64,000 nt of DNA from Takakia lepidozioides (Eukaryota > Plantae > Bryophyta), in contig CM060734.1 of NCBI GenBank assembly GCA_030704615.1, positions 12,462,001 to 12,526,000 on the forward strand, written 5' to 3'. The notes beneath the pieces were generated by a model. That model saw only the letters and a program-made list of their open reading frames with translations. It did no database searches and was not told the DNA's origin. The position numbers and the translations under genes are program-made. Shown in pieces: positions 14,629 through 47,899 of this stretch; positions within the stretch are counted from its first letter, which is position 1; each line of letters begins with the position of its first letter.

Positions 14629-17066
14629 ATGACGGAGGAGGGGGGGCAACGGTGTGGGCACCGAGAGAAGGCGGTCCAACTAGGCCCCGCAGGGAAGAGA
14701 GGTGCCAAAGGGAAGAAACATGACCTCAATTGGGACGTTTACGATAGGCCGGAAATTCAAGCGGCCGACGGATGGGATGCTATTCCGGAGAACAAACTGT
14801 GGACTATGGGGATATTTAAAAAATTCGTGAAAATGTGTCACATAAACCGTTTGTGGCCCAGGCCAATCGCATCAGATATTCACTCGGAACAATTGCTGCG
14901 ACGCCCCAACTTGCACAAATGCACATTTTCGCCAGAGGGCCGAAGATGTATATAAGACATTGTGGGGACAACCAAAGTTGTACCGAAACTCCATATTATA
15001 TACATTGGCAGCCATGGTGTATGTTGAGGTTGTTTTGCATAGGCGTGTGGATTGGCAGACAGCCACAAAATGAAAAGGAGTGAAGCAGTACACCCTTAGC
15101 GACATCCCCGACACATATGAGCCCCAGCCCCAAAGCCAGTTGAATGCAACTGCAGCAACAGTAGCACTACCAATGCACCCGAAGCAATTGCAGCACAGCC
15201 TTTGTTGGAAAACGAATTGCAAGCCAAAGACCGACGTATCACGAAGTTGGAGGACATGGTGAATAGGCAAAGGTGTCAAGGAATTGGAGAGACAGTCCTC
15301 AATATTGGTCGACGATGTCATTGCACAAATAACTTATGATATTCCTAGCCTGCCCCGGTCGTCATTTGTTGTTGCACAGGATGCAAGGCTTGAATGTGAA
15401 CAGAGGACAAAAGGCAAAGAGCCTATGGTGGTGAGGGGTGAGTGTTCGGGAACAACTATTCAATCCGACACAACAATTGTTGTGGAAAATCTCATTAAGG
15501 AACGTGATACCGTAAGGGCGACTGCAAATCAGCTGGCCAGGGTAGTAGACCTCAAAAGGTTTGTGCCACGTGAAGAGAGGTGGACGGAGTGGGTCATGTG
15601 GGCAAGAACTTTGGCATCAGAAGAGGTTCAGAAAGAACATGCACTATATCGACTACAACAAGCTGCACGGATGTCAAATCGTGCTGTGCAGAACATTTAT
15701 GCAAACATGCAGCGCTATGAGGCATTTGCCACTAACCGAGAAAAAGAAAATGATGAAGAAAGAAAAAAACGTGAAGACCAAGATGTGTCCGCCGCACTTG
15801 CCACCCATACATCCGAGTTTGACTCATTCACAGTGTGGGGTGATTTACATGGCATGTTTGACCATTGTGAACATAGAGTTGGTGGAGGCATTGAGAGCAT
15901 AATTTGGGAATTTGAAATGGGGGAGGAGTGGGATACTAGTGAGACACAAATGTCATCTCACTTGTTCGACAACAAGCGGGTGGAGTGCTCACGTCCTCCA
16001 ATACCATCATGGATCAAAGATGGCTCGTGTTGTCCAGTTTGCCTTAATTCATATGGTCCGGAGGGTGCATACTTGTTGGGAAGTTGTGGACATATGTTTC
16101 ACGTAACTTGTTTGAAGTCGGCGGCTCTGATAAGCAACACATGTCCGTCATGTCGTGCGCCAATCCACCGACGTTACTATGAGCTATTTGGGTTGGAGGA
16201 TGTGATGCCCATAGGGTATGAGCTCAATCGACACAATTTCCCTTTGGACTAGGAACCTCACAATTTTCGAAAGACGTTGGCATGGAATGCTGATACGAGG
16301 ATGCATGGCATGATATCCAATCGAACGTTCGATATCAATGAGTTTTGAATGACATCTAATTGGGAAATCACAAAACGTGCTCGTTGCATAGAAGATCCAG
16401 ATCAACGGGAGTTGTTTTGTCGAAACCTTGGAGGACATTGGGGAATAAGAAGCGAGAGGTTTTTCCGGTTGCCCGAGAACCTACCAAACGGAGTGAACCT
16501 TTCCTCATACAATGGTAATTCGATTGGCCGGCATCTGTTGCTGCATAGCCTTGAGTGTGTTGCCAAATCATGGATCCGAATGAACGACACAATGACGGAA
16601 CGCAAAGAGCGGCGGCTGCGTCGCAATCCTGCATATGAAGATGCGGATGAAAAGAAAATCAACAGATATGCCAAGGCCATTAGGCAAGTCGTTAGAACGT
16701 GGCAAATGAGTCTAGCAAGCGCGTTAGTGGGTGTGAAATCCATTGATCTCCCAAATGTCCAGGACCTTGGAGGCCGCTGAAACTGTCGCCAACAATGTTA
16801 ACTCGCCGCCTCGTCGCCTCCAAAATGATAGTCAACAGAGTGACAATCAATACTCCCCAGAGTCACTCCTCATGATGGCAAGGGTGGACGAGGAACGTGT
16901 TAGGCTCGGGCCACCACCTCGCACTCGATACCAGACCCGAGCTCGCTTGCCCATTCATCCGGACGCCGCTTCTACACACTCAGCGTTGTCATCAACCCCA
17001 CATCCGGCGGTGCCATCTGCAACTTCAGGGAGTGAAACACAAGAGACTATAGATTTATCGGAATAG
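14629..17066 (+). pseudogene. RING-H2 finger protein gene, disrupted, probably transposon cargo
   Basis: CPVC-x14-CGHMFHVTC-x10-CPSC (C3H2C3) in ORF 15284-16252, preceded by a coiled-coil-like region. The same frame resumes at 16349-16780 after stops. Confidence 0.7.
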
Positions 17067-17847: not shown

Positions 17848-19577
17848 CTAATTGTTTCTATTTCTACGACGGGATGACAATCTTGCCGGCCCCACCAGCG
17901 TGAAGTCCAAGTCCCCCTGCACTTCACCGTCAGCGCCATGGTCGGTGCTGTCATCGTCCTCAGTGGCCGTTGTGGTTGCATCAGGCATTCTTAGACGCAT
18001 CCGACCCCGTTTGATCTTCATTTGCCGCATTGGCCTATTCCCATCACGATCAGTAATTCCATCGATAGTATCTGGCCCACGTGTGTTGCGATCACCAATG
18101 AAACTTTGTACAATTTTTTGCCTTTTCGCCGCTTGTGGGGGATTTTGTATTCTCGTACCAGAATGGGGGCCACGGTGATGCGCTGCTGAGGGTCCACCGA
18201 CATGATATGAGAGTCGATTGACGTGGGTGGACTGTCGGTTCAGATGGACCTGCAATGGCAAATGATCGTCATCCGATGGATCCACCGGAGATATTTCCAT
18301 CTGCATTTGGGATGACCGAAGTGCCTGTCCTCGCGTCACGTGAGCGCTTGCCATGTTTTTTGTCACATTCTCGTGCGACTCGGGCTCTTCAACTTCCTCT
18401 GTTGTTTGCGGTGTTGTGGTGGACGGGAGGGTAACAGTTGCCGCCATGTGTACTTCCACATTTTCATTGGTCTCGTTCCCATTTGGAATACTACCTGAGC
18501 CCCGTTCCTCATCCACGCTTGGGTGAAGGCTGAAGTTGACTGCACTGCTTGGCAATGTCGGAAGAGGATGCACATGCGGGTGGTGGTCCGTATCATGCAC
18601 TGTAGTGCGGGTGACTCCAATATGAGCCACATGATGCACCACATCATCTGCGAGTAAGTCATCAAACATCGAAGGCATTGTATCATCATCCTCATTGAAA
18701 CCATGTGCATCATATCCATTGCCCTCTGCATCATCTCCCGCTTGGGAGCTATCCAAACTAGTAGAATTACCGGCATCCTCACTTGCTGTATAGGCCTCAA
18801 AAGCTGAGTCTTCAGATTGCAAGTTCCTCTTGTACCATGCTGCAGTATCATCCCCCGCTTGAGCCCGTAATAGCCGTGAATTGGTATACACATATACCAA
18901 TTTCTCGGCCCTATCCGGATGCAACCTGTTCCGAATCTTGCTATGCACGAATGAATAACTACTCCAATTACGTTCACAGAAAGATGCGGGTCTTTCAATG
19001 AAAATACATGTTGCTGAAGGTTCCTCAATAGCAACCATGCCTTTCCCATAACTGGTTTCTTTCCATCGAACTCCCGTAACACAACAAGGGCTGGCTCCAC
19101 CATGTGCACAAAATTCTCGCACTTGGACCAGAAATCATCTGATCGAATGGTCTTTCTGACCTTTTGACTTTTGCTCAGTGACTTGTTCTTCCGAGAGTCC
19201 CGCAACGTCCGTACGTGGACTTCCCACTGTGGGTCAATAACAGTGTGCTTGAGCGCGGACCTCACAGTCACCAACCTGTCCACCATCAGGAAGTTGGTGG
19301 CAAACCGAGTTTCCCCTGGATTCTTTAGGCTGTATTTTGGTTCGTGCCTCCTGTATATTGCCAAATGCATGTGGTGGTTTTGGATGAACTTCACAACAGA
19401 CTTGGCCTGCTTCACAAGGTCTTTCACCCATTGCTCTTTTTCCCAATCTGCTAACAGTAGGTCGAGGATATGAGCACAATATCCTTGATAATACATGTGA
19501 GGGTACTGAGCCAAAAGTAACTGGGCCATATTTCTCATGTTCGAGGTATTGTCCGTACAAATTTGCACAATTTTCTC
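17848..19577 (-). pseudogene. hAT (DUF659-type) transposase, 3' part, internally deleted
   Basis: QICTDNTSNM, CAHILDLL, GETRFATNFLM, CERNWS..RNRL. Deletion and frameshift near 18988. Truncated at 19577 by an LTR. Confidence 0.9.
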
Positions 19578-21140
19578 CAAGTTATTTTACCACTAGTGTG
19601 AAGTTAGCTAGGAAATAGCTAGCTTTTATATATTGACATTTGGGATTGACCCAAGTGTCAATGCAGGGGCCAATATATGTTTGGGCACATGATGTTGTTA
19701 TCTTCACGGCAGATCGCGGTGGGCTCATCTTTCTCGAGTTGAGCCTCACCGCGTCTAGCTATGGCGCCGTAGTGTGGATTCCCCATGGCGTGGGGTGCAC
19801 TTGGCTCGACTTAATATATGAGTGATGTTTTCATGTGCAAGTGTGTGAGTTTGAGAGAGCTTGTATGCTTGTATCATTATTTTCCTTATCACTTGAGAAA
19901 GATGAGTTCGAGTCTGTGAGTGCCAGGTTCGAGTTGTTTTGTAGCACTTGTGTTTTCATGAGAAGCGGTTTAGCCTAGAGTGCAGGGATCCGTGCATGAG
20001 CCTATCCAAAGTGGATGGAGTGCAAAGGCGAACAGGTTGCAGGTTTGCAATGGATAGAGAGGCGGGTAGCCTATGTTGAAGAGCGGCGTTGAATAGCTCA
20101 ATGCTATGGCAACCAAGTTTGGGCTTCTAGTGTGAAGCGGAGGAGATGCTGGCCACGAGTGGGCAAACTGGTGGTCGTCTTCTTCAGCTACAGGCCGAGT
20201 TAAGGAGCTGTAGAAATGTGGGCTGCGCATGGACATCTAGCATGTTGCAGGTTGGAGATGACATGATGAGCTCCAGGTATTTCTACCCGAAACTAGTTGT
20301 TGCGGGTAGATGAGGAGCAGCCGAATGGTGGAGCTGCGAGGGGATGCATCGCAGCCCGTTGGGAGCTTCAGCTCCAAGCTCATGAAGAGGTATGAGTGAA
20401 GAGAGGGGGCTGGTCCCTTTTGTGTGCAAATCAGTGCACTTGTGAAACATGTGCTGAGTTGGAGTTTCAATCTGAAACTCAGCAGTGTAAGGGCTCTTGG
20501 AGTGGCAAGAGCAGGGCTAGAAGGGCAACAACGAGGCGCCCTAGAGCCAAGGGAGATGCATGAGAAGTGCAGGTGCACCAAGTTTGTAAAGGTGTGTATT
20601 TTCAGATTTGTTTTTGTGAGCTTCATGAAGAAAATGGAGCTTGTTGGGCAGCATATAGCTTGCTTGTTGAGTTGGAGGCACTTCTAGTGGGCCGTGAGAG
20701 CTCAAGAGTGCAGGGCGACGGGGCTGATGGCTCCGCAGAAGCCATAGCTCGTCGGTAGCAGGTGCAGGAGCAAACCCCAGCTCGGGGAGAGCTCGGGAAC
20801 GCGTGGGAACGCCGGGAACGCATGGAAACTCGTTGGGAGTTCCAGGGAACGCAGGGAATAGTGACCGTGATGGGCCGTTGGGGCGGTATCACGAGATATC
20901 ACGAGCCCAGGTCGTGATGGTTGACCGTGACCGTTGACCATGACCGTTGGAGGTCGTGGTGCGGACACAACGGGTGGGCACGGTGACCAGATAGTGGGGA
21001 TGGCGGGCCGTGAAGGCTCGTGGGAGTGGTACCACGGGGTATCACTGGGCAGCCCGTGGCCGACAAGTGCCTAGGGCGGGCCGTGAGGAGTAGTGGCGGT
21101 TAGAGCCAAGGAAGGCCGCGAACAGGCAGAGTGAAAAAAT
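19578..21140 (+). mobile_element. 5' LTR plus leader fragment of the DNMT-gypsy family
   Basis: High identity to the reverse complement of 37621-38784, with about 400 bp extra at about 20005-20400. Confidence 0.85.
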
Positions 21141-23391
21141 AAAAAATAAAAAAAATAAAAAAAAATAAAAATTGCAAGATCGTTGCAGGTGTTGTCAGGT
21201 ATGAGTGTTACAGCCTTGACTGACCTACCCATCTTACAGTCAACAACAAAACTCCAAGACCTGTTACTTTCTATTCTGCTCTGAGAATGATGAAGCGCAA
21301 CAGCAGCCAAATAGCACACTGAATCAGAGGTTACCGAACAGACTAGAACACTCGGCAAATTATGTAATTTTTGACCACACATCAAATCATGAAAGGCAAT
21401 AAAAAGTGTAGCTGTAGCTTGCCACAATGTTTTTCTTTCTTCTTTTAACTCAAGGTTCTGTTGTGATCTCACTTGTTGTGCACAAAGCCACTCCATGCAT
21501 TCTTGTGAGATAGTAGATTCCATAGTTCCAGTTGGACCAGCATGTCTAGTTCATCAATTTTATGAGTTCTGAATTTCATGTCTAGTTCATATACTACCTA
21601 GAGGCGTATCCCCGCTGGGAGCAGGCTCTGTATGGCACTCTGTTTGCAAATACACATCTCATCTATTGCCCTGACATTTCTATTCTTCCGGATGGGGCAG
21701 TGAGTACCTATAGACAGAGATTGATTGAGACATATCCCCAGTTGGTAACTCATGCCCCCACTACTGCCCCAAGTACTTCACGTCGTCAGCCACCTCTTTC
21801 AGGACACTTGGCTGCAGTTTCTCGGCGATTATCTACACAACACAATGCAAAGAATGTCAGAAGGCACGTCCCAAGAGCAACACCTTGCCCTAGAGCCTAC
21901 AAGCCAGTACAATTCAGATGATGATTTTGTCGACTCCATTCAAGGACATCAGCTCAGCTCCCAGCTCCATCGAGGTATCATCTAGATCAACTATCTGAAT
22001 AACAATTCAGAGGTTCTACTCTTGTTACTTTGGTTATCTTCGAAGTTTGATTTGGAACTTCCTTTTGGTCGGGCAATTTCCCTACTTAATTTTTTGCTAC
22101 ATTCAAATCAAGCATGGGTTTATGGCCACAAGGCCCCTTAGCAAGCTATAACTTAATGTGAGTATACTTCTCATACCGAGGCTCTGCAGATATGACGGTG
22201 AAGCTTTACAGAATCAGCGTAAAGCATAGCCTTTTTTGTATTCTGTAACGCCTCACCATCATATCTGCGTAAAGCATAGCATTGCTTCCATGGAGCTCTC
22301 CTTCCCTGCATTAATTGCAATCAACTGACAAGGTCAAATGTCAACATCCCCAATGGCTGATTCCTCCCACTTGTATCCCTCAGCACAAGACTGAAATTCA
22401 AAACTCACTCACTCTTTCTTGTAGGTACATCGAGTCGTCGCTTAATTCAGCCACCAGGTCCTCTGGTACCTCATACAGACAGCTCCAATGATGAGATGTT
22501 TGAGGAATCCCTCTGCCGCCCCCCACATCCACCGCCACCCCAACATCCAGAGGTTACAAATATTACACAACAATCAGATTTGGCGGCCATGGAGGATACC
22601 CAGTTAGAGGTACTTTCAGAACAGTGGTTGGAATGTCATAGGAGGTATTTCAGATTCTAGGGCACAAGAAGGGGCTCATATCTTCCACAACACAACCGAG
22701 GATCCTTCATCAAAAACATTTTGTTCTGCCTTTGATGCATTTCTAGTTGAGGTGAGTGAAAACAGTAAAGATCCCACACTCCAAAAAGTTTGCGACGACC
22801 TTTCCCTGCGTCGACACTTGCGGCGAGGGATTATAACATCAGAAGCCCATCTTGCAAGGATGGTGCTTCACCCGTCATTCTCAATGTGTACACAGGCTGA
22901 TATAAAAAAGGAGTTTGAGCTAAAAGCGAGAAGGTTTTGGAGGGAGTGGGACTCATTTGACAAAGAAGTTAAAAATTCCCAACAAGATTAGCTACGAGAT
23001 GAGGCAAAGACTCTATCAGAATTGTATGGAGGGGCCATACGTAAGGCTGACAATCCACCATTGGTGGCTGATTTGGAGAGGATTTTGACCATCCCAAAAC
23101 TCTCTAATTTTACTGTTCAACAGTTGCTACAGATGTGCGAGCACGTTGATGATATTGGCATGCATGAAGAAATATCCTTGCTGACCAAAAGACAAGAGTT
23201 GGATGCTGCCCTTTTGAAGTACCAACGCACATACCTTTCTTCAGAAATATTCAAGACCATCAATAAGTTGCAACGACAGATTGCTTCTACAAAGGTTAAG
23301 GTAAAGCCACCACCCACTGTATTGATGTATTGATGGGAGTTTTGGCATTGTGGTGGAGCTGGTCGTATCGGTGAGGCATGATCCCGTCCCG

Positions 23392-25770
23392 TCAACTGTA
23401 CAATGGGTTCGACACCATTGTTTGTATGAACAGGGTTGCGTACGTCGATTGGTCTTGGCAGTACATCACCCCTAAGCTCCATTGGGGCACTACCGGTGGC
23501 TTCAGCGTGTAGTGGGGGGCGACGGTCGACCCCAACTTCATTTTGAGGACCATGTTCTGGGGATGACACAATTGTAGCTTCACCTTCATCTGTGATACGC
23601 ACTTCTTCAAGAAGGTCATCAAAGGTCGGCTGGATATAAGCATCATCATTGTGAATGTAAACTGGTCACACGCATTTTCGGGAGCATCATCGGATCCATC
23701 TTCACTATCGGAGGCAGATGATTCCCTCTGAGATGATTCTCTCTGAGGCTCAGTATCGTCACTCAACGAATCAGCCTCAGAAGCAGAGTCTTCGGAATGT
23801 AAAGTCCTCTCATACCATGCTGCAGCATCATCCACTGTCCTCTCACGTAGCAGTCGACAATTGGTATACACATACACCAATTTGTCAGCCCTCGCGGGAT
23901 TCAACCTGTTGCGAATCTTGTTGTGAACAAATGAGTAACTGCTCCAATTGCGTTCGCAAGATGAGACAGAGCACACTTGAGCAAGAATACGCTTCGCAAT
24001 GGCAGCCAATGTTCTTACTCCAGCTCCAATCAGATCCCACCATTCATGTGGCAACATATTGAGCTCTTTTGGATCCGGCATGTCCTCAAAAGGGTCGCGG
24101 CGATCTGAGAAGCATTGGTACTCGGATATAGCTCTTTCTACATGGTTTGGCGGAGCAAGTCGCATGAGCACTCGCACGAGGCCGACCTTGGCATCAGCGT
24201 CGTCTCGGAGCATGGTATTGTCGAGCAAGAATGGATTGAGCAAAGCCCACACATAATGCAAGTCCGTTTGAACCATCGAACGACGGTCGTAAAATGCATC
24301 ATCAGCACTGTCCGCAAGTTCAGGTTCCAAGGAGAAGAGAGGATGCCTCAAGGATTGGACGTGCTTCTCAAGATTTTGCATTAGTAACCATGCCTTGCCT
24401 ATGACGATTAACACCGGCTCTACCATATAAACATAGTTTTCACATTTCTTCCAGAAATCATCGTTGCGAATGTTATTTCGAACTTTTTGATTTTTGCCCA
24501 ATGACTTGGCTTTTCTGGAGTCCCACAATGTCCGTGTGTACACATCCCATTGAGGATCGATGATGGTATGCTCCAGACTGCTCTTCACCGTCACCAACCG
24601 ATCCACCATCAAGAAGTTAGTGGCAAAACGAGTTTCGCCTGGATTGCGGAGGCTGTATTTGGGTTCGTGCCTCCTATATATTGCCAAAGGGATGTGGTGT
24701 GTGCAGATGAATGACACAACAGTCTTCGCTCGCTTGACAAGTTGTTTCACCCACTATTCTTTTCCCCAATCTTCCAAAAGGAGGTCAAGGATATGAGCAA
24801 CACAACCTTGATAGTACATATGGGGATAACGTGCCAACAACATGTCTGCAGTGTTTCTCATGTTAGCAGCATTGTCTGTGCATATTTGCATGATTCTATC
24901 ACTTCCGACCTGTTCGATGAAGTCCGTCAATAGTTGGCATTGATAACGTCCATCTTTCTTCTCGCCGCTAGTGTCGACCGATCCCAAGAATTGTTCTCCA
25001 GCTGGACATACGAGCATGACATTGAACAACGGTCTGTTTGTGATAGAACTCCAACCATCGGCACATATAGTGCTTCCATATTTTCTGATGCACTCGCCCG
25101 TCCTATCGTTGACATTTTGGGTAAGCTCAGTCATGGCGTCTTCTAGCAATCATGTGCGGAGATTGTGATAAGTTGGAGGCACGTACGTGGATCTGGACTC
25201 CGAGGTTGCTCTAACGGCAGAAACAAATGTCGGAAGCCTTGCCACATTAAATGGTATGTTGGCCTCAAAGAAAAACTGCGCCCATTTTTTATCCAACTGT
25301 CTTTTCGGAGACAAGTTAAGACCTTCTTGCATAGATTGCTGCCGTAATCCTCTACTCCGTTGAAGTGTAGGGATACAAAGAGGTGTTGAAGCAGGTATTG
25401 CTCCGGCACAATCCACTTGTCCAAGGACACCCGAAGCCTCACAAGAGTCGCCCTGGGTACTAATCGGGGCATCCTGACGGGAAGATGGAGTATTCTGCTC
25501 AGAGGTCATGTCCAGATCCAAAGACATTGGAATATTGCCTTCACACTGGGCAAAGTGACTTTTTACCCGCATAGATGCTTTGGGGCATAAACCCACCCCG
25601 GCGCTCTTCACACCTTTATAGTCGAGGTAAGCGAGCAACCGATCCTTACGATAAGAAAGATTTAATCCACATAGGTTGCACTCAACACTACTAGTGGCAC
25701 TGACAGTGTTTGGGATTGCCGTATACCAAGGGTTCCATTCCTCTCTTATCTTTAGCCAATATCCACTCCC
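23392..25770 (-). pseudogene. hAT (DUF659-type) transposase with N-terminal BED-like finger, stops and frameshifts
   Basis: W..VECNLCG..VGLCPK, FFFEANIPFN, TICADGWSS, QICTDNAANM, CVAHILDLLLED, GETRFAT, EWW, SCERNWS. Confidence 0.9.
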
Positions 25771-26179
25771 TTGGGACCTAGCGATGCAAGCAACAAAAAA
25801 CAGTCACCTATAAATGAACGTGTTGTGAATGTAGAGTGCAATGCGATAGCCCAACACTTCTACACCTGTCAGCAACCCAAGTGGGTCGATGTGGGTTGTA
25901 GTATTGAGCTTATACACAATCTGCTTAAGTGGCTTTGGTGGAATTTCAACGCAAAAGGTGTGCACCCTTCTCTTGGGTTACACTCTCGTTCAATGAAAGA
26001 GAACATCCAAAGCAACCTCAAGTGTTTGCGCCAAAAGAAGTGAAGAGCTTGGTGACCCTCCTTCCTTATATATGATCCAAGAGGGATGAAAGTGAAATGA
26101 AAGTGAAATGAATAAATGACGAATCAATAGGTCCTACCCGAAAAAAACTGTACAACCATATTTGTTGTAATTTTGAAAT

Positions 26180-27549
26180 TAAGCGACCGCTAATACTACG
26201 GTCGCTATTTTTATTTTTTATGAAAAACAAGCGACCGCCACTACTGCGGTCGCTTTTATTTCCTTTCATTTTGTGCAATATTGCGGTCACTTCTATTTTG
26301 TATATTTTTATTAAACGACCGCCTGTATGGCGGTCGCTATTGTTTATATAATGCGATTGCCGGTATGGCGGTCGCTTCATTTGTTAATATATTTAAAATA
26401 AAGCGACCGCCAATATGGTGGTCGCTTTTATTTTTCATATTTCGAAAAAAACGCGACCGCCAGTAAGGCGGTCGCTTTTAATCTTTATATTTTATGGCGG
26501 TCGTTTGATTTTCTATATATTTTTAAAATTAAGCGACCGCCCAATGGCGGTCGCTGTTTTTTTTTTTATATTTTTGAAATTATCCGACCGCCATATGGCG
26601 GTCACTTGTTCTGTACATATTTACAAAATTGTGCGACCGCCAATACGGCAGTCGTTTGTTTTCTTTTTTAAATTAGGCGACCACCAATGCGACCGCCAAT
26701 CTTGTTTTTTTTTAAATAAATTGAAGCGACCGCCAAGATATCGGTCGCTATGTCTTTTTTTAATTCGAAAAATAAAGCGACCGCCAGTGTGACCGCCAAT
26801 ATGGCGGTCGCTATTTCTTTTTCTATTTCGAAAAATAAAGCGACCGTCAATGCGACCGCCAATCTTGTTTTTAAAAAAAAAATTGAAGCGACCGCCAATA
26901 CGGCGGTCGCTATTTTTTTTTTAATTTCGAAAAACAAAGCGACCGCCATAATTGGCGGTCGCGTTCATTTTGTTAATTTTCAAAAATGTATTTGCTACCG
27001 TGCAACCGCCAATACGGCAGTCGATTGTTTTCTTTTTAAATTAGGCGACCGCCAATACGATCGCCAATCTTGTTTTTTTAAAACAATAAATTGAAGCGAC
27101 CGCCAACATAGCGGTCGCTATTTGTTTTTTTAATTCAAAAAATAAGGCGACCGCCAGTGTGACCGCCAATCTTGCTTTAAAAAAAAAAACATTTGAAGCG
27201 ACCGCCAATATGGCGGTCGCTATTTCTTTTTCTATTTCAAAAAATAAGGCGACCGCCAGTGCGACCGCCAATCTTGCTTTAAAAAAAATAAAAATTGAAG
27301 GGACCGCCAATACAGCGGTCGCTATTTCTTTTTTAATTTCGAAAAACAAAGCAAATTGGCGGTCGTGTTCATTTTGTTAATTTTCAAAATGTATTTGCCA
27401 CCGCCACCGTGTCGGCGACATGGCTGCTTAAGTGGCAGTATTTTACCTGGTACTATTTTTACCAGAATATTCCCCGAACTTGACGAGACGGAGGTCTCGT
27501 CAGCGTCAGGTCCGACGTGACCTGACGCTGACGGACGGACGTGACCCTG
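26180..27549. repeat. hAT subterminal palindrome array (AAGCGACCGCC-N5-GGCGGTCGCT) and terminus
   Basis: Dozens of GCGACCGCC half or full palindromes in A/T-rich spacers upstream of the transposase. Ends GGACGTGACCCTG (reverse complement CAGGGTCACGTCC, hAT-like). Confidence 0.75.
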
Positions 27550-29029: not shown

Positions 29030-30356
29030 TGGTTCAAGTGGAGGGGATACACTTGCTTCGAGTGTGGGAGGATGGTCGGGTGAGGATCGTGCCTCACCCA
29101 ATATAGCGTACACGGTTAGTGCGGCATGCCTATGAGGAGTTGGGGCATTTTGGAGTGCGACGCACTCATAGTTTACTGCAGGGGCAGTATTTGGTGGCGT
29201 GGTATGCACACAGAGGTGCAATAGTTCGTGGCTAGGTGCATGGTATATGACAGGGTGCGTGCTTCATTCAACGCCCCTACACCACAGTTGCATCCATTAT
29301 CCATCATGGGATTGGGCTACAGGTGGAGTTTTGACTTTGCGGGGCCATTGTCATTGACGATGCGCCACCACAGATATGTGTTGGTGATGGTGGAGCACTT
29401 CTCCAAGTGGATTGAGTTGGTTCCATTACCTGACAAGGCTAGTGAGGGGGCTGCGTATGCATTCCTGGATCGTGTGCTTAGCCGATTCGGTGCTCCAGCT
29501 GAGGTACTCACGGACCAAGGGAGAGAGTTCTTGTGTGATAAAGCCTTGATAGACCACCGTACCACTTCTCGGGATCATCCTGAGGCCGATGGCTTGGCAG
29601 AGAGAGTGGTGCAGACGGTGAAGAGGGGTTTGCGCAAGTATGGCTTGCAAAAGGGACACCTAGGAGATTGGGATCTCTCAGGTACCTTGGCTAGCCATGG
29701 GCTACAGGTTTAGCAAACAAGCATCACTTGCCTCCTTCTCACCATATTTCCTTCTCTTTGTCCGAGAGCCAGATTTGTCTACGTCTATTTGCAGGGAAGC
29801 TGCAGTAGTCCTCAACCTTGATGATCCGGATGTGTGGACACAAACATGTGCCCAGCGGGCAGAGTTGTTCCAGAGAGTCATGCCTATGGCTTTTGAGAAT
29901 CTTGCTATTTACCAACATCGAGACACATTGAGGTATGTCACTATACGTGGAGGGGGATATCGGCCAGGTGTTCGGCGTTTCCACCTTGGGGACTATGTGT
30001 ATCTGCAGCAGACAGCGCCTACGACCTTGGATGTCACAGCAGGACGTGTGATTCTAAGGGTCAGGGAGGTGTTGCCTTCAGGAGTGTTGATTCTGGAGGG
30101 TCGAGATGGCATGGTATGGAAGGACCATGTGCGTAATTGTACGTCATGTCACCTCTTACATGTGGATGGGAGGATGGATCCCACCCTTGCAGTGGTACCT
30201 ACAGGGTTGCGTTGCATGCTATGTGGGCATGCTCGTGGTGCCGCCACTATGCTGGTGTGTGATCGATGCTCAAGAGGTTGGCACATGGGATGCTTGACAC
30301 CACCTCTTGAGAGGGTTCTTGATGGAGATTGGTTATGTCCACACTGCTTGGGATAG
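29030..30356 (+). pseudogene. Gypsy integrase (Zn finger, DDE core) with C-terminal PHD finger
   Basis: EELGHFGVRRT, RWSFDFAGPL, EVLTDQGREF, HPEADGLAERVVQTVK, CMLC..CDRCSRGWHMGC..WLCPHC. Several stops and frameshifts. PPT at 30602-30616. Confidence 0.92.
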
Positions 30357-30664
30357 TGACAGCGGATATGACTAGTGGCAGCTAACAAGACATGGGAGGC
30401 CAAACTCATAGGAGTCAATACCCGAGATCTCAGGCTCAAGTTCACAGGTTGCAAGACGGCGACTAACGATGGGGCAACTCTTGTACCCGGCCTCTTGATC
30501 TATCGAGTTTGAGTGTAGTAGGGACAGTGGTGGAGGACTTAATGAGGCTATGGCCACTATCACTTCTTGTGGCTACCTGGACTTAGAGGGACCTAAGCGC
30601 CAGCTAGGGGGGCGATTGTGATGGACTAGTGGCTGCACTAGGCTCATCACTAGCCTCAGGGTCC

Positions 30665-32136
30665 TCAGACACTCCGTCTACAGTCATCCTTGCTGTAGGT
30701 CCAATCTGACCTCCCGATGCCAAGATACACAAAAAGGCAGATGCATGTCATCCCGGCACCATGCCACCGAGTTCCAGTGTCATCCTGCTGGCTCGTGCAT
30801 GGATTGCGACTCAATCCATCTGCATCCTTATTGACCAAACCCGGTCGATGCACAACCTGAAAGTCATACTCTTGGAGTATAAGTGCCCACCGTGCAAGCT
30901 TCCCCGTAAGCTTGTCTGACTCCATCAACCACTTGAGTGGCTGGTGATCCGTGACAAGGGTGAAGAGATTGCCATATAGATAACACCTGAAGTGTGCCAA
31001 GGCCCACACTGTAGCTAAGCACTCCCCCTCATATGAGCTATACTTAGACTCTGCAGCGTTGTTTGAGCAGCTAGCATAAGCCACTACAAACTCTCTTCCC
31101 TCATCATCCACCTGTGTGAGCACCGCTCCAAGCCCCAGCATGCTCCAATCTGTATGCACCTGAAAGGGATGCCCCCTGATAGGTCGTCTCAAGATCGGCG
31201 CCGATGTCAACCTCGCCTTGAGCTCCTGAAAAACTCGCTTTTGCTCATCTTCCCATTGCCACTCTTGGTCTACCTTGGTCAGCTTCGTTAGAGCCTTTGC
31301 AATAGCACTAAATCCCTTGACAAACCGTCTATAGTAGTTTGCCAACCCCATGAAAGCTCGAACTCGGCTCACATCCGTGGGACGTGGAATATGTGTGATG
31401 GCCTCTACCTTAGTCTGCTGCACCCCCAATCCTCCAAGATATATTATGTGGCCCAGATACTCAATCTGGTTGTGGAAGAACTTGCACTTCCCCGGATGTA
31501 ATTTCAATCCGTGCGATCTCAAGCGCTCAAACACCACCTGAAGGTGTCTCTCGTGCTCCTCCACCATAGCACTAAAGATGATGATGTCATCTATGTAGCA
31601 CCGAGCAAAGTCTACCCCTGCTAGAATCCTGTCCATAACTCTCTAAAACTCTGCAGGAGCGTTCTTAAGCCCGAATGGTAAGAACCGCCACTGATATAGG
31701 CAATCCTTCCCGTGCTCATTGATCCCCCATAATGCCGTCTTCTGCTTGTCCGCCTCCTTGATCGGCAACTGGTGATATCCGGACCGCAAGTCCAAAGGCT
31801 AAAGACCTTGGCATGCCCAATGGCATCAAAAAACTCCTCAGGTGTGGGCATGGCATACTTATCGGACTTGGTCTGACGATTTACAGGCCGGTAGTCACCG
31901 CACATACGTCTCTCCGTCCAATTGCCATAGACATCCTTCTTGGCTGGCATCACCGTGGCTGAAGCATACTCTCCACCAGAGAGCTCCACCAAACCAGCCT
32001 CCCAGAGATCTTGAGTCCTCATCTGAATCAAAGACCTCTCCATGTCACTGTATCTATAGGGTCTCCGAAAGATTGGCGTGTCCGTGGCCAACTCAATACG
32101 AATCTCCTGACCCTTCAGTGCTCCCAAATCCTTCAA
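30665..32136 (-). pseudogene. Gypsy reverse transcriptase + RNase H
   Basis: RMCGDYRPVN, PFGLKNAP, CYIDDIII, KCKF..IEYLGH, HTDWS, YSSYEGECLA, VTDHQPL, DADGLSR. One frameshift near 31800. Confidence 0.95.
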
Positions 32137-32599
32137 ACTGAAGGCAATTCTTGTAAGCCCTCAGGAACCGCCGTATACATCGTCTCTCTCCTCCAGTGAC
32201 AATGGGTCCAATGTCAGACTCCCAATTGTCCTCCGTAACTGCAACCTTAAGTCCAGCAAACTTAGAGGTAGAGGACCCGTCCCGTGGTTGCTATGCCACA
32301 ACCTCATGAGCAGTACTCCCTGCCTGCTTAGTCAATGACAAGGCCTCATCCTGCCCCATCATCTCATCCTTGAGGACCTCCTCAACCCGAGAAGAATCCC
32401 CAACCTCATCCATCACAGCCGCCTTGGCTGCCAACTCCCTCTGAACCTCGAGCACCTCCCACGTGTGCCATGGATGTCTACACCCCGTGGTCCGCACCGG
32501 CTCGCCCCCACTCACTGCCTGTACCATCTCGGTAGGCAGAGAGACTGTCAAGGGAAGTGCACTCCACACTCTACGTTGCTCAGCCATAGCCAAGTTGAT

Positions 32600-33550
32600 A
32601 ACCCAGGTCAAGCAATTTAGATCCATCGCTTGCCCCAACACCTGACGACGTAATGCCTCAGAAAGAGAAGACACCGCCGTGGTCCCAGTGGAAAAACCCA
32701 TAGCCCGCTCTCGCTCGTCGGCATTAGGCTCCCACTAACTACTGCAACTGAGCACCCCACAAGAGGCTAGGTCCACTATCTCGGAAAGCATGCGATCCTG
32801 GGAAACTGAGCAGTGTAGGTAGTGCTGCTCGTGGTTGACCCACCTTATTGACCACTGCCAAAGGCGAACGGTCATCGACACACGCTGAGACTGCCTCCCT
32901 GTGTCCAAGATGCTATCAACTGTGAGGTGTGCTGGCCGCTGCATCCCATCAAATGCACGCTTGAGCAGTGCGGGTGACATCAAGTTAGTCCACCATATCC
33001 GTGGATGATGAGCCCGTGACTGCAACTGCATCCAGCAACACTGCTGACCCAAGCCACGACCGGACTTGATGCACACTGGCCATCACCCTGGCCCGAGAAT
33101 CGCCCAGCAGTGGCACATTCTCCAAGATGTATGCTGGAGATACAGCTTGATGAAGCTGTAAGTGGCGCAAAACCCGCACCATCTCCCAAAACAGACCCGA
33201 CCTCGAGTCTCGCAATCCATTGCCATGCCTGGCTGATGAATGCCCTTGGCAAGGCCAACCTGCCACTACCAAATCAATGGAGCCAACCCGCTCCAAATCC
33301 TGCACCCCCAGCAACGAAATGTATGCTGGCAAGGCCTGCTGATATCCACGAACTGCAGACACCGACAACAACTCAGGGTACTGCTGCACCAACTGAGCAA
33401 CATGACGGAGTGAGACGCGTCGTGCGGTCTCATCCCTCTCCACATACAAGTAACGCGTACTCGTACACTTGCCTGTAGAACAGCAACCAACCCGGTGCTG
33501 ATCCCACCAAACAAGTCTAGAAGGCAAATGCCTTCATCCGGACACTGCCA
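32600..33550 (-). pseudogene. Retrotransposon-encoded C5-cytosine DNA methyltransferase (DNMT3-like motif order), frameshifted
   Basis: I LLDLFGGISTG, II YVERD, IV DLVVAGWPCQGHS, V GLRDSRSGLFWE, VI YILENVP, VIII SRAHHPRIWWTN, IX ERERAMGF, X RRQVLGQAMD. Confidence 0.9.
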
Positions 33551-33925: not shown

Positions 33926-34291
33926 CTACCATCCAGGCCTATAGGAAGCTGACTCCTCCCAAAAATCCAGGGTGAAGCCCATGGGGTACAACATTGCCCC
34001 ACCAACAAGGACATCGTACGAGACCGCGTCTGTCACAATGGCCTTGGCTCTCATCACTGAGCCATCTGTAGGATGATCTCGCTGTAGTCTGATAGCCAAC
34101 TCACGCCGTGTCATGCCCCGAGCCTGCTTTGATCCTCCCAGAGATGTCTGCATCTGGAAAGGGCACGGCTCCATATCCGCCTCCGTGAGGCCCAAGCTTG
34201 CAATAGCAGCTCTGCCCAACATCAATGGCTGAGCTCCCGAGTCCAACAAGACTCGGAGTGGCCGGTACCTCTTGCTTGTCGGTCCACTCAA
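33926..34291 (-). CDS. Retropepsin aspartic protease domain
   Basis: VLLDSGAQ catalytic motif and YDVLVGGAML C-terminal motif. Confidence 0.85.
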   Translation of the reverse strand: MSGPTSKRYRPLRVLLDSGAQPLMLGRAAIASLGLTEADMEPCPFQMQTSLGGSKQARGMTRRELAIRLQRDHPTDGSVMRAKAIVTDAVSYDVLVGGAMLYPMGFTLDFWEESASYRPGW

Positions 34292-34832
34292 ACAGAAAAT
34301 GCCATCCTAGTTGTCTAACATAACAACTCCAGGTGTCACCATGGCGCGCTCAATGGCTGGCCTAGCTGGCAGCTCCATCAACCTGGCAGTTGCAGCTTGC
34401 CATGGTGCCGCCGTGGCAGTCTTGACCCTCACATCCGAGGATCCCTCCGGCACTACACCTCCCACTATCTCCACAGAAGATGAAGTAACCTCCCCACTCT
34501 CACAAAGTGTAGCTGCCAGCCTGAACACCTCAGCTGGTCTTACCCCCGGCGTCGCAATCATGGTAGCCGAGAACAATAGAGCCTGGCACACAGCTGTGGC
34601 CGCCCCCAGCAGCACACTAGCTGCCGTAGCCTTGGCAACACTAGGTAGTGGTGCTGCCCGTGTAGCTCTCCCCAATGGCATGGTAACCTCCGCCTCGGTA
34701 ACAGTCGGGCGAGAACTAGGTGCCATGGACGGCGTCGACACTGTCTCCGCCAATGTGAATGACTGAGGAAGCCTGGCCTGACGGCTTGCCTTCCCATGTT
34801 GTGGATCCAACTCCACCTCTGCACCCCGTGGC

Positions 34833-36524
34833 TCAGGAACTCGTGCCGCTCCTCGAGTCACTGCCGTAGCTGACTCCACTTGCACTAGTGGTAGTGCTGC
34901 CCCGCTCATAGTGGTAGTGGTAGTGCTGCCCGACACTAGTGGTAGTGGTAGTGGCACCCCTCACTAGTGGTAGTGCTGCCCCGCACATGAATCCCATGCC
35001 TCCCATGTCTCCTCCCTCATGAGCAGGAGGTGGACCATCCGGCCTTGGAGCCGGTACCACATGAGCTGTGGCCATGGCAGCGAGCCTCTGCTCTAGCTGC
35101 TGAAGCCGGTTGGCCATGCCTTGGTCACCACCCTGACCTCCGCGTCTTTGGCCATGTTGAGTTTGCCCTTGGCTTGCACCTCGTGCCTGGCCACCTCGTC
35201 CTCTCTGGGCTGCTCCACCTCGCCCCCGGCCACCATTGTTCCCTTGGAACTGGCCTGGGCGCAACTCAGGGTGCAAACCATAGCACTGGGCTTCTCCATG
35301 CTCGTATTTGCCACAATGCCCACACTGCAGATGTGCAGGCTGTGCCGGTGCCAAACCATTACCTCCCTCTGGGCAATCCTTCTTAACATGGGGTCCTCCA
35401 CATGTCCAGCACACCACATCCGCCCGTTGTTGGCTAGCAAATGAAGGGAGAGACCCCTGCATCTGAGGTCATCTCTGCCCTTCCCTGGGCTTCACCTGAG
35501 CCCCCTTGTTGCCTTGAGCACGTTGAGGTAGTGGCTGGCTAGGAGCACCACTACCCCGTGGTGCCTCCTTAGCAAATCCCACCATGACCACTCGTTCCTC
35601 CACCATGTTGAGCTCTATCCGCTCTGCCAGCAAAAACACATTTGCTAAGGTGGGTTGGGCCGCTTGTAGGAGAGTTGCATCCCGCACCCTTCTCCTCAGC
35701 TCCTTGTCCAATATCCCATACCAGAATTGGACTGCCTGAGCCTCCGTAACCCCTTGGGTTACATTAATCAAGCGCCTCATGCGAGTGAAAGCCTCCCTCA
35801 AGCTCTCAGTAGGCTTTCGTTGGAACTCTTGCGAGCTCCTCAACTTCTCTGTCCTCACCCCTTGGTAGTTCCTTCTCAACTCTTCGAAGAACTCCACAAC
35901 AGGGTTGAAGGCAGGCACCGCCACTGGTGCTGGTGCAGCAGTAGCTTGGGTGGACATCGTAGTTGTTGTACCACTAGTCCCACTACTGCTCGTGGAAGCT
36001 GCTGTTGTAGCTGCCGCTGCTGGTGCAGCTGCCGGTGTGGCTGCTGCCCTTGTGCCTCTAGTGATGGAGACATAGTCGGGTGACCAATACATCCTCCACT
36101 CTTCGATCTCAACATCGTGCCCCCGCCTAAACTCATGGTAATCATCCATGGGCGGCCCCTCAAGGTGCTGAAATAGCCCCTTCCATGCCATGAAAGGCGT
36201 AAACAGTTGTGGATTGCGCATTTGCTGCAAGTCACACCAACTATCAAACTCTTGGATAAAATCATCCAACTCAATGGTGCCCACCGCCCCAAAGTACCTA
36301 CGTGGCCCCTTGGTGGCTCCATACATTTCCTCCATTGTGTCCCACAACAATGGCAAGGAAACAACTTGCACCACCGGTGTGAGTCCTCCTGATTCACAAT
36401 CCGAATCAGAACCTTCCGTAGAAGATACAAGAGGTGAAGGTGGCCTAAACCGCACACCCCGTCTCGTATACCCGCTAGTATCGCTAGTGCTCGTACCGGC
36501 ACTTTCCCCAGCAACTAGTGGCAC
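34833..36524 (-). pseudogene. Gag (capsid-like region + two CCHC zinc knuckles)
   Basis: QRKPTESLREAFTRMRRL, CWTCGGPHVKKDC, CGHCGKYEHGEAQC, RGG-rich tail. Frameshift near 35465. Confidence 0.85.
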
Positions 36525-38396
36525 CTCCGTGTTGACAAACTGACACTCAACCGGTCATGAACATGTCTCTAACCCCCTCTCCACAAGGTATCCGGGTAGA
36601 GAACCTGATGCGGCTTATGGTTTGGAATACTAGGTTCCTAACATAGCCTGCACCTGCACCTACATCCACCGCAGGCACTCCCATGGTTGGCTGGTCATCA
36701 CCTCCAACCTCACCACAAGAGAAACAAAGATGGTCTGACTGGTCATCAACCCAGCCTCACCATCGACAGCATGCTCTAGGTTGGATCGGCGATCAAGCCC
36801 GAGTCAACCACCTATAAAATCAAGCGCCCACACAAAACTAGCATGGCGCACAATCAAGCATGCAGGTGTGGAGGGGATCCAAACACAAGAATGAAAACAA
36901 CAACTCCCCCACACCAAAAATCTCTCCACAGTGTCGCTCCTGCAACCCAACCCAAACTCGGACCGACTCTTGCCTCCACCTACAGAAAGGTCTCGGCTTA
37001 CAAAGAAGGTGGAAAACTACGAGGAATGGAAGCTAAAGCAATGTCTATCCCCAGCACGCTCTCATCCTAACACCCTCTTTTTTTTCCTCTCTTCTCTCAC
37101 TTGCATGACCATGACAGCATCCTGTAGACACTCCTCAAACCGCCCTCCACGAGCTCATGAAACTTGGCCTCCAAGGCCCCATGCAAGCCTCCACAGGGTC
37201 CGCCAGTGCCTCCTTACGTCCACCAGCCATTCCTCCGAATGGAACCACCTCAGTAAACCACACCATTCGCTGAAGGTTCAAAAATGGAGCAAATAGAGGT
37301 ACATATAGGCCCCCAACAACATCCTGTCCAAAGAAATTACCTGCAGGCGGGTCTCCCCCATAGTTAAAAATTGGGCTGAAAACCCCCAAAAAGATTACCT
37401 ACAGGGAAGTAATCCCCTTTGTTAAAACGCAACAGGGAGGCAATTCCGACTTTTTTGCCGGATCAGCTAGCTCAAAACCGTTGTTCTTCAAAGCCCAGCC
37501 TCCCCATCAAGGTCCCACGAAACGAGTGAAAAAAAGTTTTTTTTTTTTTTTTTTTTTTTAATAATAATTATTATTATTATTAAATAATATAATAATTTAT
37601 AAATAAAATAATTAATATTTTTACTCTGCCTGTTCGCAGCCTTCCGTGGCTCTAACCGCCACTACTCCTCACGGCCCACACTAGGCACTCGTTGGCCACG
37701 GGCTGCCCAGTGATACCCCGTGGTACCACTCCCACGAGCCTTCACGGCCCGCCATCCCCACTATCTGGTCACCGTGCCCACCCGTTGTGTCCGCACCACG
37801 ACTTCCAACGGTCACGGTCAACGGTCACGCCCTGGGCTCGTGATATCTCGTGATACCGCCCCAACGGCCCATCATGGCCACTATTCCCTGCGTTCCCTGG
37901 AACTCCCAACGAGTTCCCATGCGTTCCCGAGGCGTTCCCGGCGTTCCCACGCGTTCCCGAGCTCTCCCCGAGCTGGGGTTTGCTCCTGCACCTGCTGCCG
38001 ATGAGCTATGGCTTCTGCGGAGCCATCAGCCCCGTCGCCCTGCACTTTTGAGCTCTTACGACCCACTAGAAGTGCCTCCAACTCAACAAGCAAGCTATAT
38101 GCTACCCAACAAGCCCCATTTTCTTCATGAAGCTCACAAAAACAAATCTGAAAATACACACTTTTACAAACTTGGTGCACCTGCACTTCTCATGCATCTC
38201 CCTTGGCTCTAGGTTGCCTCGTTGCTGCCCTTCCAGCCCCGCTCTTGCCACTCCAAGAGCCCTTACACTGCTGAGTTTCAGATTGAAACTCCAACTCAGC
38301 ACATGTTTCACAAGTGCACTGATTTGCACACAAGAGGGACCAACCCCCTCTCTAATAGGCTCATGCACGGATCCCTGCACTCTAGGCTGAACTGCT

Positions 38397-38787
38397 TCTC
38401 ATGAAAACACAAGTGTGCTACAAAACAACTCGAACCTTGCACTCTCAGACTCGAGCTCATCTTTCTCGAGTGATAAGGAAAAGAATGATACAAGCATACA
38501 AGCTCTCTCAAACTCACACACTTGCACATGAAAACATCACTCATATATTAAGTCGAGTCAAGTACACCCCACGCCATGGGGAATCCACACTACGACACCA
38601 TAGCTAGACGCGGTGAGGCTCAACTCGAGAAAGATGAGCCCACCGCGATTTGCCGTGAAGATAACAATGCCAAGTGCCCAAACATATATTGACCCCTGGA
38701 TTGGCACTTGGGTCAATCCCAAATGTCAATATATAAAAGCTAGCTATTTCCTAGCTAACTTCACACTAGTGGTAAAATAACTTGACA
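38397..38787 (-). repeat. 5' LTR of the DNMT-gypsy element (inner boundary approximate)
   Basis: Starts TGTCAAG. Shares TATCTTCACG..GCTCATCT.TCTCGAGTTGAGCCT and TTGGCTCGACTT with LTR 848-1286. Confidence 0.75.
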
Positions 38788-40040
38788 AGGGGATTGGGGA
38801 GATGATGACAATTAGTGAGAGAAAAAGATGTTGGACTGGGTATGTGTGGAGTTGGTGGGTGACGTTGACAAGTGCGGGGTATTGGCAAGTGGGAAGTCCA
38901 AAGGTGGCGATTGGTTGTATGGGTCTGCGGGTAGTGGCGGGTGGGTTAGGAAGAAAGGGAGTCTGATATGTTGGTACAAGGGATACGGTGTTTGTTTGGA
39001 AATATAATGCATATCTTTCTTGGGGGTCGTTGGGAAGTGCGTGGATGATACTGGTGATGGTGGTGGGACCTGGGTTTGGATGAATGTCGCCACAACATAT
39101 TAGCATAAGTGCTTCACATGCGAGATTGTGGGTTTTGTGATGTGATGGGGGGTGATGTAGGGAATGATTGGATGCAAGGGGTTTTTGGTGGTATCTACTA
39201 TGTGGGCAGTGGGTTATAAGGTGAGGTTTGAGGAAAGGAGGGGTGGGGGATGGTGGGTGGAGGATATTATGGTGATGTATGTGGTGGATTTTGTGAAGGA
39301 TAGTAGAGTGACTGAGGGTGGGACTAGAGGTTAGTTTAGCTCTGGTGGGGTTTTGTGTGCGAGCTAGGGAAGTGGTTTTGACAGAGGGTGGGGAGGGGCT
39401 TAGGCCGGTAGGTGGGAGGTATATGTATTAGTGGGGGAGAAAGGAGATAGGTGGGTGTTAGATTTGGGATGACTGAGTTGGGTAATAATACGGACGAGGT
39501 GCTCTGGTGTGCCCTCTGTCTGATTAGCTGCAGCGGGACCACGTGTGCGTAGAGGATGCGCTGGCGGGTGGCAATGGAGTGAGAAGAGCGGGGGGGGGGG
39601 TCGAGCAGATATGAGGGCAGGGTCAGACGTAGATAGGGGTGGACAATGGCCTAGTGGGGGCACATGGTGCGGTCAAGGAGGGTCTTAAATGTTGGTGTTT
39701 GTGTGTAAGGTATCTTGCAGTAGAGTTTTATTATTGGTTGGGGGTGGCTAGGGATGCTAATATTTAACATAGGAGGGGAGGGCGCCAGGCGAGGAGAAGT
39801 TGTCGTAGTCTGATATCGTTGATGAATATGCCCGGGTAGTGTGGATGAATGAGTGTTGTAAGTAGGCGAGGGTGTTGGTTGGATGAACGCGATCGGAGGT
39901 AGTTGGTGGGCGGATGATTGTACCGCTGGATGTACGTCGTGACGGCTGTTGCGTATATTTATGGAGGGGGGTGGCCAGGGATGTATGATGAATACGTGGG
40001 AGGCAACACAAAGGAGGTCCGTTGTGGGGGGGGGGGGGGG
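38788..40040 (-). mobile_element. Pro/Thr/His-rich retroelement ORF fragment with 2A-like motif
   Basis: LMLICCGDIHPNPGP at about 39109-39065. Upstream residues are homologous to 45060-45200. Confidence 0.6.
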
Positions 40041-44134: not shown

Positions 44135-44139
44135 CTTCT

Positions 44140-46388: not shown

Positions 46389-46449
46389 GCTAGGTAGACA
46401 TTGTGTGGTTCTGGTATAACAGCATACACATGAAATGTTTATATGAAGA

Positions 46450-47104: not shown

Positions 47105-47107
47105 GTT

Positions 47108-47797: not shown

Positions 47798-47899
47798 TGA
47801 GTTGATGTTGCGAGCTGCAAAAAGATCGGGGGATCCAAACAAAATTGCCAGAGCTGTCAGCATGTGTGCGGAGGTCAATAGTTCATCCGATGGGACAAT

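Follow-up and report, generated by a model that had tools for sequence, protein, structure and literature searches.

Two PHD-ended integrase copies and a DNMT element in the window

The window analysed here, a stretch of 64,000 nucleotides of Takakia lepidozioides DNA (contig CM060734.1), holds two remnants of a Gypsy integrase on the plus strand. Copy 1 (3–499, frameshifts near 170 and 284) comprises the integrase C-terminal region and a PHD finger, followed by a 3′ UTR (500–757) with a polypurine tract (PPT) at its end (749–757). Copy 2 (29030–30356) is 5′-truncated, with frameshifts near 29190 and 29677, and retains the zinc-binding domain, rve core and C-terminal region of the integrase, the finger again last; its 3′ UTR (30357–30641) carries the PPT (30606–30614) and a stub of repeat B, and meets a minus-strand piece near 30641. 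Both copies are frameshifted, dead remnants, and they align at 79.8% identity (3–771 against 29859–30628).

The frames at 278–496 and 29664–30353 (both plus) each terminate in a full C4HC3 finger of the pattern C-x2-C-x11-C-x2-C-x4-H-x2-C-x12-W-x-C-P-H-C, then a stop (C1 to C8 at 356–490 in copy 1 and 30213–30347 in copy 2). Pfam PHD (PF00628, curated cut-off 24 bits) scores them at 45.8 and 39 bits (E 6e-12 and 8e-10). Translation and Pfam thus bear out the sequence-only reading, which held that both integrase copies keep all C4HC3 ligands and the W-x-C-P-x-C end; its further claim of a common 3′ UTR and PPT also stands, the UTRs being identical at 222 of 267 positions up to the same PPT. Over the 45 codons of the finger, dN is 0.087 and dS 0.508 (ratio ~0.17). 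Together, these values show a finger that is complete in the window copies and, as judged from its substitutions, under purifying selection.

Copy 2 abuts, tail to tail, a minus-strand element that runs in the order repeat A, Gag, protease, DNMT, RT, RNase H. Repeat A1, its left end, lies at 38471–38787 and is followed by Gag (34836–36554, with a Cys/His-rich nucleocapsid region and one stop inside), an aspartic protease (33929–34306) and a DNMT3-like C5 cytosine methyltransferase (32570–33530), which is frameshifted and in which motif I, PC and ENV are present. An in-frame stop in a readthrough context (TAG CAA CCA, 32285–32293) stands between Gag-protease-DNMT and RT-RNase H-integrase-PHD, and the RT, RNase H and part of the RNase H-integrase linker (30642–32290) break off 30–40 codons short of the point at which copy 2 starts. 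The pol of this element thus has Gypsy order with a DNMT3-like domain, matched by Pfam DNA_methylase and, among PDB entries, best by DNMT3A/3B (E 2e-5); across the family the catalytic Cys is present in 78 of 79 DNMTs, and the Glu and Arg in 79. A second DNMT fragment, 91% identical to the first, lies at 43393–44135 (minus), and the 5′ fragment of another copy, consisting of repeat A and leader at 93–95% identity, occupies 19578–21143 (plus) with an insertion at about 20005–20400.

As a correction to the sequence-only reading, copy 2 lies on the other strand from this element. Copy 2 (29030–30641) probably represents the 3′ half of the adjacent DNMT element in inverted orientation, with small losses at both breaks. 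With the intact relative P0007 as a ruler, the minus piece covers residues 92–604 and the plus piece residues 638–1082, with zero overlap, and the window RT clusters, at a support of 0.97, with the proteins that have the integrase-PHD closest to copy 2. In contigs from host DNA runs, other copies continue past both break points. An alternative in which two insertions from an abundant family came to adjoin independently, or were mis-joined, seems unlikely: repeat depth in the host runs (not read as copy number) is very high on both pieces, so that two copies could meet by chance, and no bridging contig was found for the right junction near 30641 among the matches listed, but the break points are complementary to within 30–40 codons of an element of ~9–10 kb, and an exact 87-base contig, probably from the sample behind the assembly, bridges the left junction at 29030. 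The family-level pairing described below is unaffected by this alternative. A search for the right end of the window DNMT element by its target duplication returned a chance match only. Loci L031, L038 and L040 likewise have DNMT or RT pieces opposite in strand to the integrase-PHD.

Elsewhere in the window, a class III peroxidase gene (52150–53817, plus; Pfam E 2e-28) is apparently the main host gene. Remnants of hAT transposases lie at 17848–19586, 23395–25803 (minus) and 47101–47798 (plus), and further Gypsy fragments (Tf2-type SH3, RNase H, integrase, protease-like) at 4775–5137 (plus), 12033–12507 (minus), 59190–59929 (minus) and 49320–49844 (minus). RT-like and GDIHPNPGP-bearing frames at 9963–11291, 38747–40223 and 44844–46565 (minus) are presumably LINE-like remnants. 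SWIM-like Cys/His patterns at 60401–63223 (minus) suggest a MULE-type transposon, two frames scanned there giving no Pfam match, and a 329-codon frame with a RING finger at its end (15263–16252, plus) is possibly transposon-borne. Degenerate tandem arrays occupy 7850–8422, 26160–27403, 44133–44563, 54706–55353 and 61780–62292.

Pairing of DNMT and PHD across the family

The nearest named relatives of the window element come from Marchantia, Calypogeia, Riccia and Sphagnum. We took the 150 best representatives from a full-library protein search with P0006, found the family integrase C-terminal region in 70, and called DNMT and PHD in these with profiles of our own. Both domains were present in 49, PHD only in 17, DNMT only in 2 (which end 29–62 residues past the integrase C-terminal region) and neither in 2. 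A Pfam check of 22 proteins, 19 of them from the list of 150, confirmed the PHD in 21 and detected the divergent DNMT in only 8. Because the P0006 query contained the PHD, a search with the RT only was also run; among its best 120 of 620 matches, 49 have a complete integrase C-terminal region followed by at least 60 residues of tail, and the PHD was found in 46 of these 49, the other matches being too short to judge (70) or without that region (1). A protein search anchored on the DNMT had no match reaching the PHD (0 of 33), the first ORF mostly stopping ~85 residues after the DNMT. At the DNA level, an RT with a good score precedes the integrase in 19 of 80 metagenome loci, 16 of which also have a DNMT upstream on the same strand.

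P0016 and P0036 carry DNMT, RT, RNase H, integrase and PHD in a single ORF; in single-ORF relatives 1.1–1.2 thousand residues lie between DNMT and PHD. The position of the DNMT varies: it precedes the RT in 6 of the 49 double carriers and lies between RNase H and integrase in the other 43. Relatives with both domains on one element occur in liverworts, mosses, Klebsormidium and chlorophytes, the last through a Scenedesmus protein; no relative of the family was found among the viral contigs searched. The co-occurrence that the sequence-only reading had predicted is therefore upheld by the representatives, the RT-bearing loci and the single-ORF proteins alike. DNMT copies with a PHD-less integrase, which it had named as evidence against itself, turned up in one lineage: of 12 DNMT-bearing proteins from the RT search that extend to the end of the integrase, the PHD is clear in 8, degenerate in 1 and absent from 3, all of Closterium, whose polyproteins end ~30 residues later with a short basic tail in place of the finger. 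Together, these surveys establish that the pairing of PHD and DNMT is real at the family level and often in one ORF, yet loose rather than a fixed unit.

Several features of these relatives are recorded here in their own right. In the Closterium proteins P0305, P0311, P0312, P0317, P0318, P0321 and P0334 the integrase tail is basic, of G-P-x-T-R-A-R type, and ends ~30 residues past the C-terminal region; it is similar to what we take to be the motif in the tail of CRM chromoviruses, and could serve as another kind of chromatin tether. In many of the 43 representatives with DNMT between RNase H and integrase (P0091 and P0140, for example), the PHD is followed by another 300–500 residues, for which the proteins scanned gave no Pfam match. 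Among Marchantia and other bryophyte gene models (P0003, P0056–P0080), many annotated as hypothetical or as DNA methyltransferases are pieces of the Gypsy-DNMT3 retrotransposon. A separate Gypsy lineage that branches apart from the window family, represented by P0205, P0212 and P0230, has its PHD placed after RNase H and before the integrase. Two of its members, P0205 and P0212, encode a Dam adenine methyltransferase as well and so form a further pairing of reader and writer.

The closest described element is KnitGypsy-Dnmt3 of Klebsormidium nitens, which like the window family has a DNMT3-like domain in a Gypsy pol, the Gypsy domain set and DIRS-like repeats, given as A-coding-B-A-B in the legend of Fig. 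4c (PMC5890265). No activity of its DNMT was seen in yeast, a result called inconclusive there (PMC5890265). The K. nitens proteins P0051 (DNMT-RT-RNase H-integrase) and P0017 (integrase-PHD) match the window at 35–56%, and P0051 and the window RT fall in one clade with a support of only 0.27 (FastTree, 104 sequences, 36 of 61 outgroup rows omitted). The word PHD occurs 0 times in the text and three supplement files of that paper, while Fig. 4c may draw one, and the text examined describes no repeat mechanism, self-primer or readthrough stop (PMC5890265). Relative to that description, the range now includes liverworts, mosses, Closterium and chlorophytes, and the DNMT position is variable.

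PHD fingers in Gypsy and other retroelements have been called widespread (PMC6673714, PMC9940879, PMC8557442, bioRxiv 2021.11.30.470311). The Chlamydomonas elements Gypsy-7a_cRei and REM1 are Gypsy elements with a PHD proposed to limit harmful insertions, and their intergenic insertions occur at 2.6 times chance; no DNMT is named for them there, and a legend puts the PHD before the integrase, as in P0205, P0212 and P0230 (PMC9940879). In EpiLTRs and DAM-LTRs, as here, one LTR element combines a chromatin reader with a DNA methyltransferase, but their reader is a chromodomain and their methyltransferases are an adenine enzyme and a DNMT that is sister to DNMT4, an acquisition called distinct from Gypsy-DNMT3 (bioRxiv 10.64898/2026.05.21.726589). 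Streptophyte elements are mentioned without detail in PMC12344493, and nothing on the family was found in bioRxiv 363937 or PMC10508981. Already known, then, are a DNMT3 in streptophyte Gypsy elements with DIRS-like repeats and PHDs in Gypsy elements; for the PHD-DNMT pairing, internal junction, self-primer and readthrough stop we found no description for the Gypsy-DNMT3 family in the open-access literature searched. With the pairing, an element already known for its writer gains a reader, by itself a modest extension; the family spans chlorophytes to land plants and accounts for many DNMT3-like gene models in Marchantia, Calypogeia and Sphagnum.

The stop before the RT and a possible ligand of the finger

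In the window subfamily, which is one of land plants, the stop is conserved and keeps DNMT and RT out of one ORF; in P0016, P0036, P0051, L059 and L063 they share one, L059 and L063 being open at the boundary position. At locus L015, open ORFs of 1369 and 1047 codons lie in one frame with TAG CAG TTA between them, and a stop followed by CAA, CAG or TAA occurs at the DNMT/RT boundary in 14 of 19 loci, plus L056. CARYYA is an established readthrough context (PMC3441728); in the subfamily most frequent among the loci the sequence is CAACCC, which departs from that motif at one base. This arrangement points to a DNMT made at the level of Gag and capsid and a PHD-integrase made by stop-codon readthrough at a fraction of that level, a scheme in which we have considerable confidence, and DNMT and PHD-integrase are probably separate products in the window subfamily. 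A separate DNMT product fits the published suggestion, put forward for DIRS elements, that retrotransposon DNMTs methylate their own cDNA (PMC5890265).

What might the finger read? PHDs that read H3K4me3 require an aromatic cage with an invariant Trp; readers of unmodified H3K4 are without the cage and are marked by a hydrophobic residue ahead of the third Cys and by acidic ones ahead of the first (PMC3241642). We counted residues in the 99 of 107 family PHDs that fit the spacing pattern. At the position that we take to be that of the cage Trp, two residues before the His, there is Gly in 92, Ala in 6 and Pro in 1, and an aromatic residue immediately precedes the first Cys in 1 of 99; the H3K4me3 cage is thus absent from the family PHDs examined. 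A hydrophobic residue precedes the third Cys in 98 of 99, and an acidic residue lies at most five positions before the first Cys in 67, both window copies being without it. Residues lining the H3 groove are strongly kept (Met in 90 of 99, Asp after the third Cys in 90, Gly two before the His in 92). The nearest solved PHD sequences are those of KDM5A/B PHD1, ATXR5, BAZ2A/B, PHF21A, UHRF1, CHD4 and DPF PHD2, and the modelled PHD superposes on solved PHDs at 0.6–2.0 Å over 46–53 columns, the PHD part alone having been used of a 230-residue integrase-tail model that is weak overall (pTM 0.33).

In sequence and model the finger resembles readers of unmodified H3, not H3K4me3 readers. Whether it would bind H3 residues 1–4, disfavour H3K4me3 and so bias insertion away from active promoters we judge to be evenly balanced; in the window copies, given the missing acidic residues, discrimination at K4 may be weak. 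Some plant PHD-like domains are reported not to bind H3 (PMC9640981). The resemblance nonetheless makes a role in integration like that of a chromodomain plausible by analogy, and a targeting role for Gypsy PHDs has already been proposed (PMC9940879, PMC6673714). In chromoviruses the histone reader likewise sits at the integrase C-terminus and would work alike if the PHD tethers integration (PMC6317226, PMC6673714); unlike them, the present family has a PHD in the chromodomain's place, none of the 22 relatives scanned having a chromodomain. Two other roles were weighed. The finger could be a general tether to chromatin or to a host protein regardless of H3K4 state, or a structural part of the integration complex; the window copies, with neither cage nor acidic patch, and the basic tail of Closterium, which stands at the PHD position as if any chromatin tether sufficed, speak for it, but the strong conservation of the groove residues makes it unlikely.

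The other role, in which the PHD acts like the ADD of animal DNMT3, bringing the element's DNMT to chromatin without H3K4 methylation and directing insertion and methylation to the same state, fares worst. The ADD module of DNMT3 consists of a GATA-like finger and a PHD beside the catalytic domain in one chain; we set it aside as a model for the present finger, a single PHD behind the integrase, parted from the DNMT by RT-RNase H and a stop. The co-occurrence of the two domains from chlorophytes to land plants, the unmodified-H3 type of the finger, the DNMT3A/3B affinity of the DNMT and the 43 of 49 double carriers whose DNMT, placed between RNase H and integrase, could remain joined to the latter once processed are all as such a coupling would have it. 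Against it, the stop separates DNMT from PHD-integrase in the window subfamily, no ADD-type GATA finger precedes the DNMT, the three Closterium polyproteins have a DNMT and no PHD, and 17 of 70 representatives have a PHD without a detected DNMT, most of which start near the RT and cannot be judged; P0107 and P0170, with more than 800 residues upstream, have no DNMT. The steering of methylation that the sequence-only reading had extended from DNMT3 was accordingly not sustained, the DNMT being parted from the PHD ORF by the stop, 1.1–1.2 thousand residues away where the two share an ORF, and shifting in position within the family. From these sequences the coupling of reader and writer appears weak, and we regard it as very improbable.

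We favour, with moderate confidence, a reading of the stretch as the PHD finger closing the integrase of a dead Gypsy-DNMT3 retrotransposon, in which the finger would likely tether the integration complex to nucleosomes through the H3 N-terminus and the DNMT would act apart from it, on the element's own cDNA.

Repeats, a predicted self-primer and the internal junction

Behind copy 1, repeat B1 (758–845, plus) starts immediately after the PPT and ends in GACA. Repeat A2 (848–1199) follows, and B2 (1200–1286), the right end of the copy, is identical to B1 at 85 of 85 aligned bases. The sequence-only reading had placed here an LTR related to that of the DNMT element; the relationship to the 5′ repeat of that element holds (70% locally, 76% over 294 aligned bases), but A2 does not directly follow the PPT, and since it lies between B 758–845 and B 1200–1286 it is not an ordinary LTR. 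The order A-coding-B-A-B is found in window copy 1, L014, L056, L077 and L026, the full-length loci L014, L056 and L077 reading A-coding-PPT-B-A-B, and the window DNMT element begins with repeat A alone, at TGTCA. TGTCA and YGACA are the true ends, fixed by 4-bp target duplications: of 8 loci with both ends, 5, which represent 4 independent insertions, have a perfect 4-base match, while two match at 3 bases and one at 2. Right ends among the loci listed are B-A-B in 28 (21 independent) and B alone in 23 (20 independent).

The two end motifs are also fused inside the 3′ repeat. At 839–852 (plus) the window reads GACA-GC-TGTCA, the right-end motif, a 2-base spacer and the left-end motif, a predicted site of integrase cleavage. 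This fusion occurs in 33 of 33 readable loci, not all independent, with the spacers GC (11), AC (11), AT (7) and GT (4), all derivable from GC by cytosine deamination; the count omits L047 and L049, in which the junction is deleted, and L055. The A2/B2 joint differs in some copies (L009, L036), and B2 retains every base that follows the PPT.

No tRNA primer site was found after A1. The primer-binding position right after A1 (38455–38471, minus) is, over 17 bases, complementary to 38623–38639 within the repeat (fold z −4.61, 0 of 200 shuffles). Ten of 11 copies show complementarity of the bases that follow A1 to a segment lying 149–171 bases into A, over 12–17 bases, and the paired sequences differ between subfamilies; only 7 of 11 A copies have a self-complement that exceeds the longest of 60 local controls. 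At L015, where the contig looks collapsed and the outer ends are unclear, the match is 16 bases against a control maximum of 10. Some copies have TATA-like boxes 20–30 bases upstream of the predicted self-primer. As read from this pairing, the complementarity is a signature of self-priming of the Tf1 type. The predicted self-primer also lies inside a conserved GGCTCA..TGAGCC hairpin (window 38610–38645, L007, L026), which could compete with primer pairing.

In Tf1/Tj1 the primer site is likewise complementary to sequence within the 5′ repeat (PMC4600332); in the window family, differently, the ends used by the integrase lie inside the primer-defined LTR rather than at its edges. DIRS-group split direct repeats have the same order A-coding-B-A-B (PMC5890265, PMC8557442). 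Unlike DIRS, the window family has a DDE (rve) integrase, a PPT and 4-bp target duplications, and no tyrosine recombinase was found in the window or in the 22 relatives scanned. We had presumed Troyka to be a further split-repeat Gypsy, and Selgy/Phygy to be PHD carriers. Troyka has 5′-CG..CG-3′ ends and a 3-bp duplication (PMC12440569), against TG..CA ends and 4 bp here, and is not a split-repeat Gypsy; for Selgy/Phygy, the word PHD occurs 0 times in PMC6317226.

How might such copies arise? It is likely, from the positions of primer site and PPT, that reverse transcription is self-primed and yields a linear cDNA with B+A as the LTR at both ends: used as usual, the primer site that follows A and the PPT that precedes B would give cDNA ending in B+A, at whose edges no integrase motif stands. 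We lean towards a route in which the end of A is then joined to the start of B and both reactive ends are made by integrase cleavage at the internal GACA-NN-TGTC junction, leaving A..B-A-B integrated. A staggered cut after each CA would give exactly the 2-base overhangs of processed ends, and the variable A2/B2 joint is as expected of an end-joining scar. Copies ending in B alone could stem from one-LTR circles or from B-B recombination.

Alternatively, extra template switches could produce a linear cDNA ending at the start of A and the end of B, which the integrase would trim in the usual way, so that the A-B-A-B ends need no junction cleavage. Linear DNA is the proven substrate of retroviral integrases (PMC11054761), and the A-B-A..B form expected from cutting the other junction is seen at 0 of 8 independent visible 5′ ends, an absence that the junction model leaves unexplained. 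Yet B2 starts with the base that comes directly behind the PPT, and the primer site marks where A stops, so that the two usual primers delimit an LTR of B+A. Two unprocessed ends, if joined, would leave 4 bases at the junction, where a single common spacer of 2 is seen, and the A2/B2 joint differs between copies in the manner of a scar. On this evidence we find template switching rather doubtful, and junction cleavage the better account.

Combining these elements, we tentatively put forward a composite reading, which we rate at slightly below even odds: the DDE integrase of green-plant Gypsy-DNMT3 elements would bypass the linear cDNA ends, acting on end-joined, self-primed cDNA by a staggered cut at the palindromic CA-NN-TG inside the LTR to leave a permuted A-coding-B-A-B provirus, and the same particle would hold Gag-level DNMT3, maybe marking the cDNA, and a readthrough PHD-integrase placing it by histone state. 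The ends matter more than the pairing and could surprise a specialist. Should internal junctions indeed be what the integrase cuts, it would stand as a DDE retro-integrase that follows another substrate rule; LTR finders that expect two equal flanking repeats would miss or mislabel an abundant family; and the circle-junction route, put forward for retroviruses in 1984 and later given up there (PMC11054761), would have a natural example in the family. Among the loci, L004, L005, L011 and L007 have internal deletions with their ends intact, several having lost RT-RNase H and kept DNMT and integrase-PHD.
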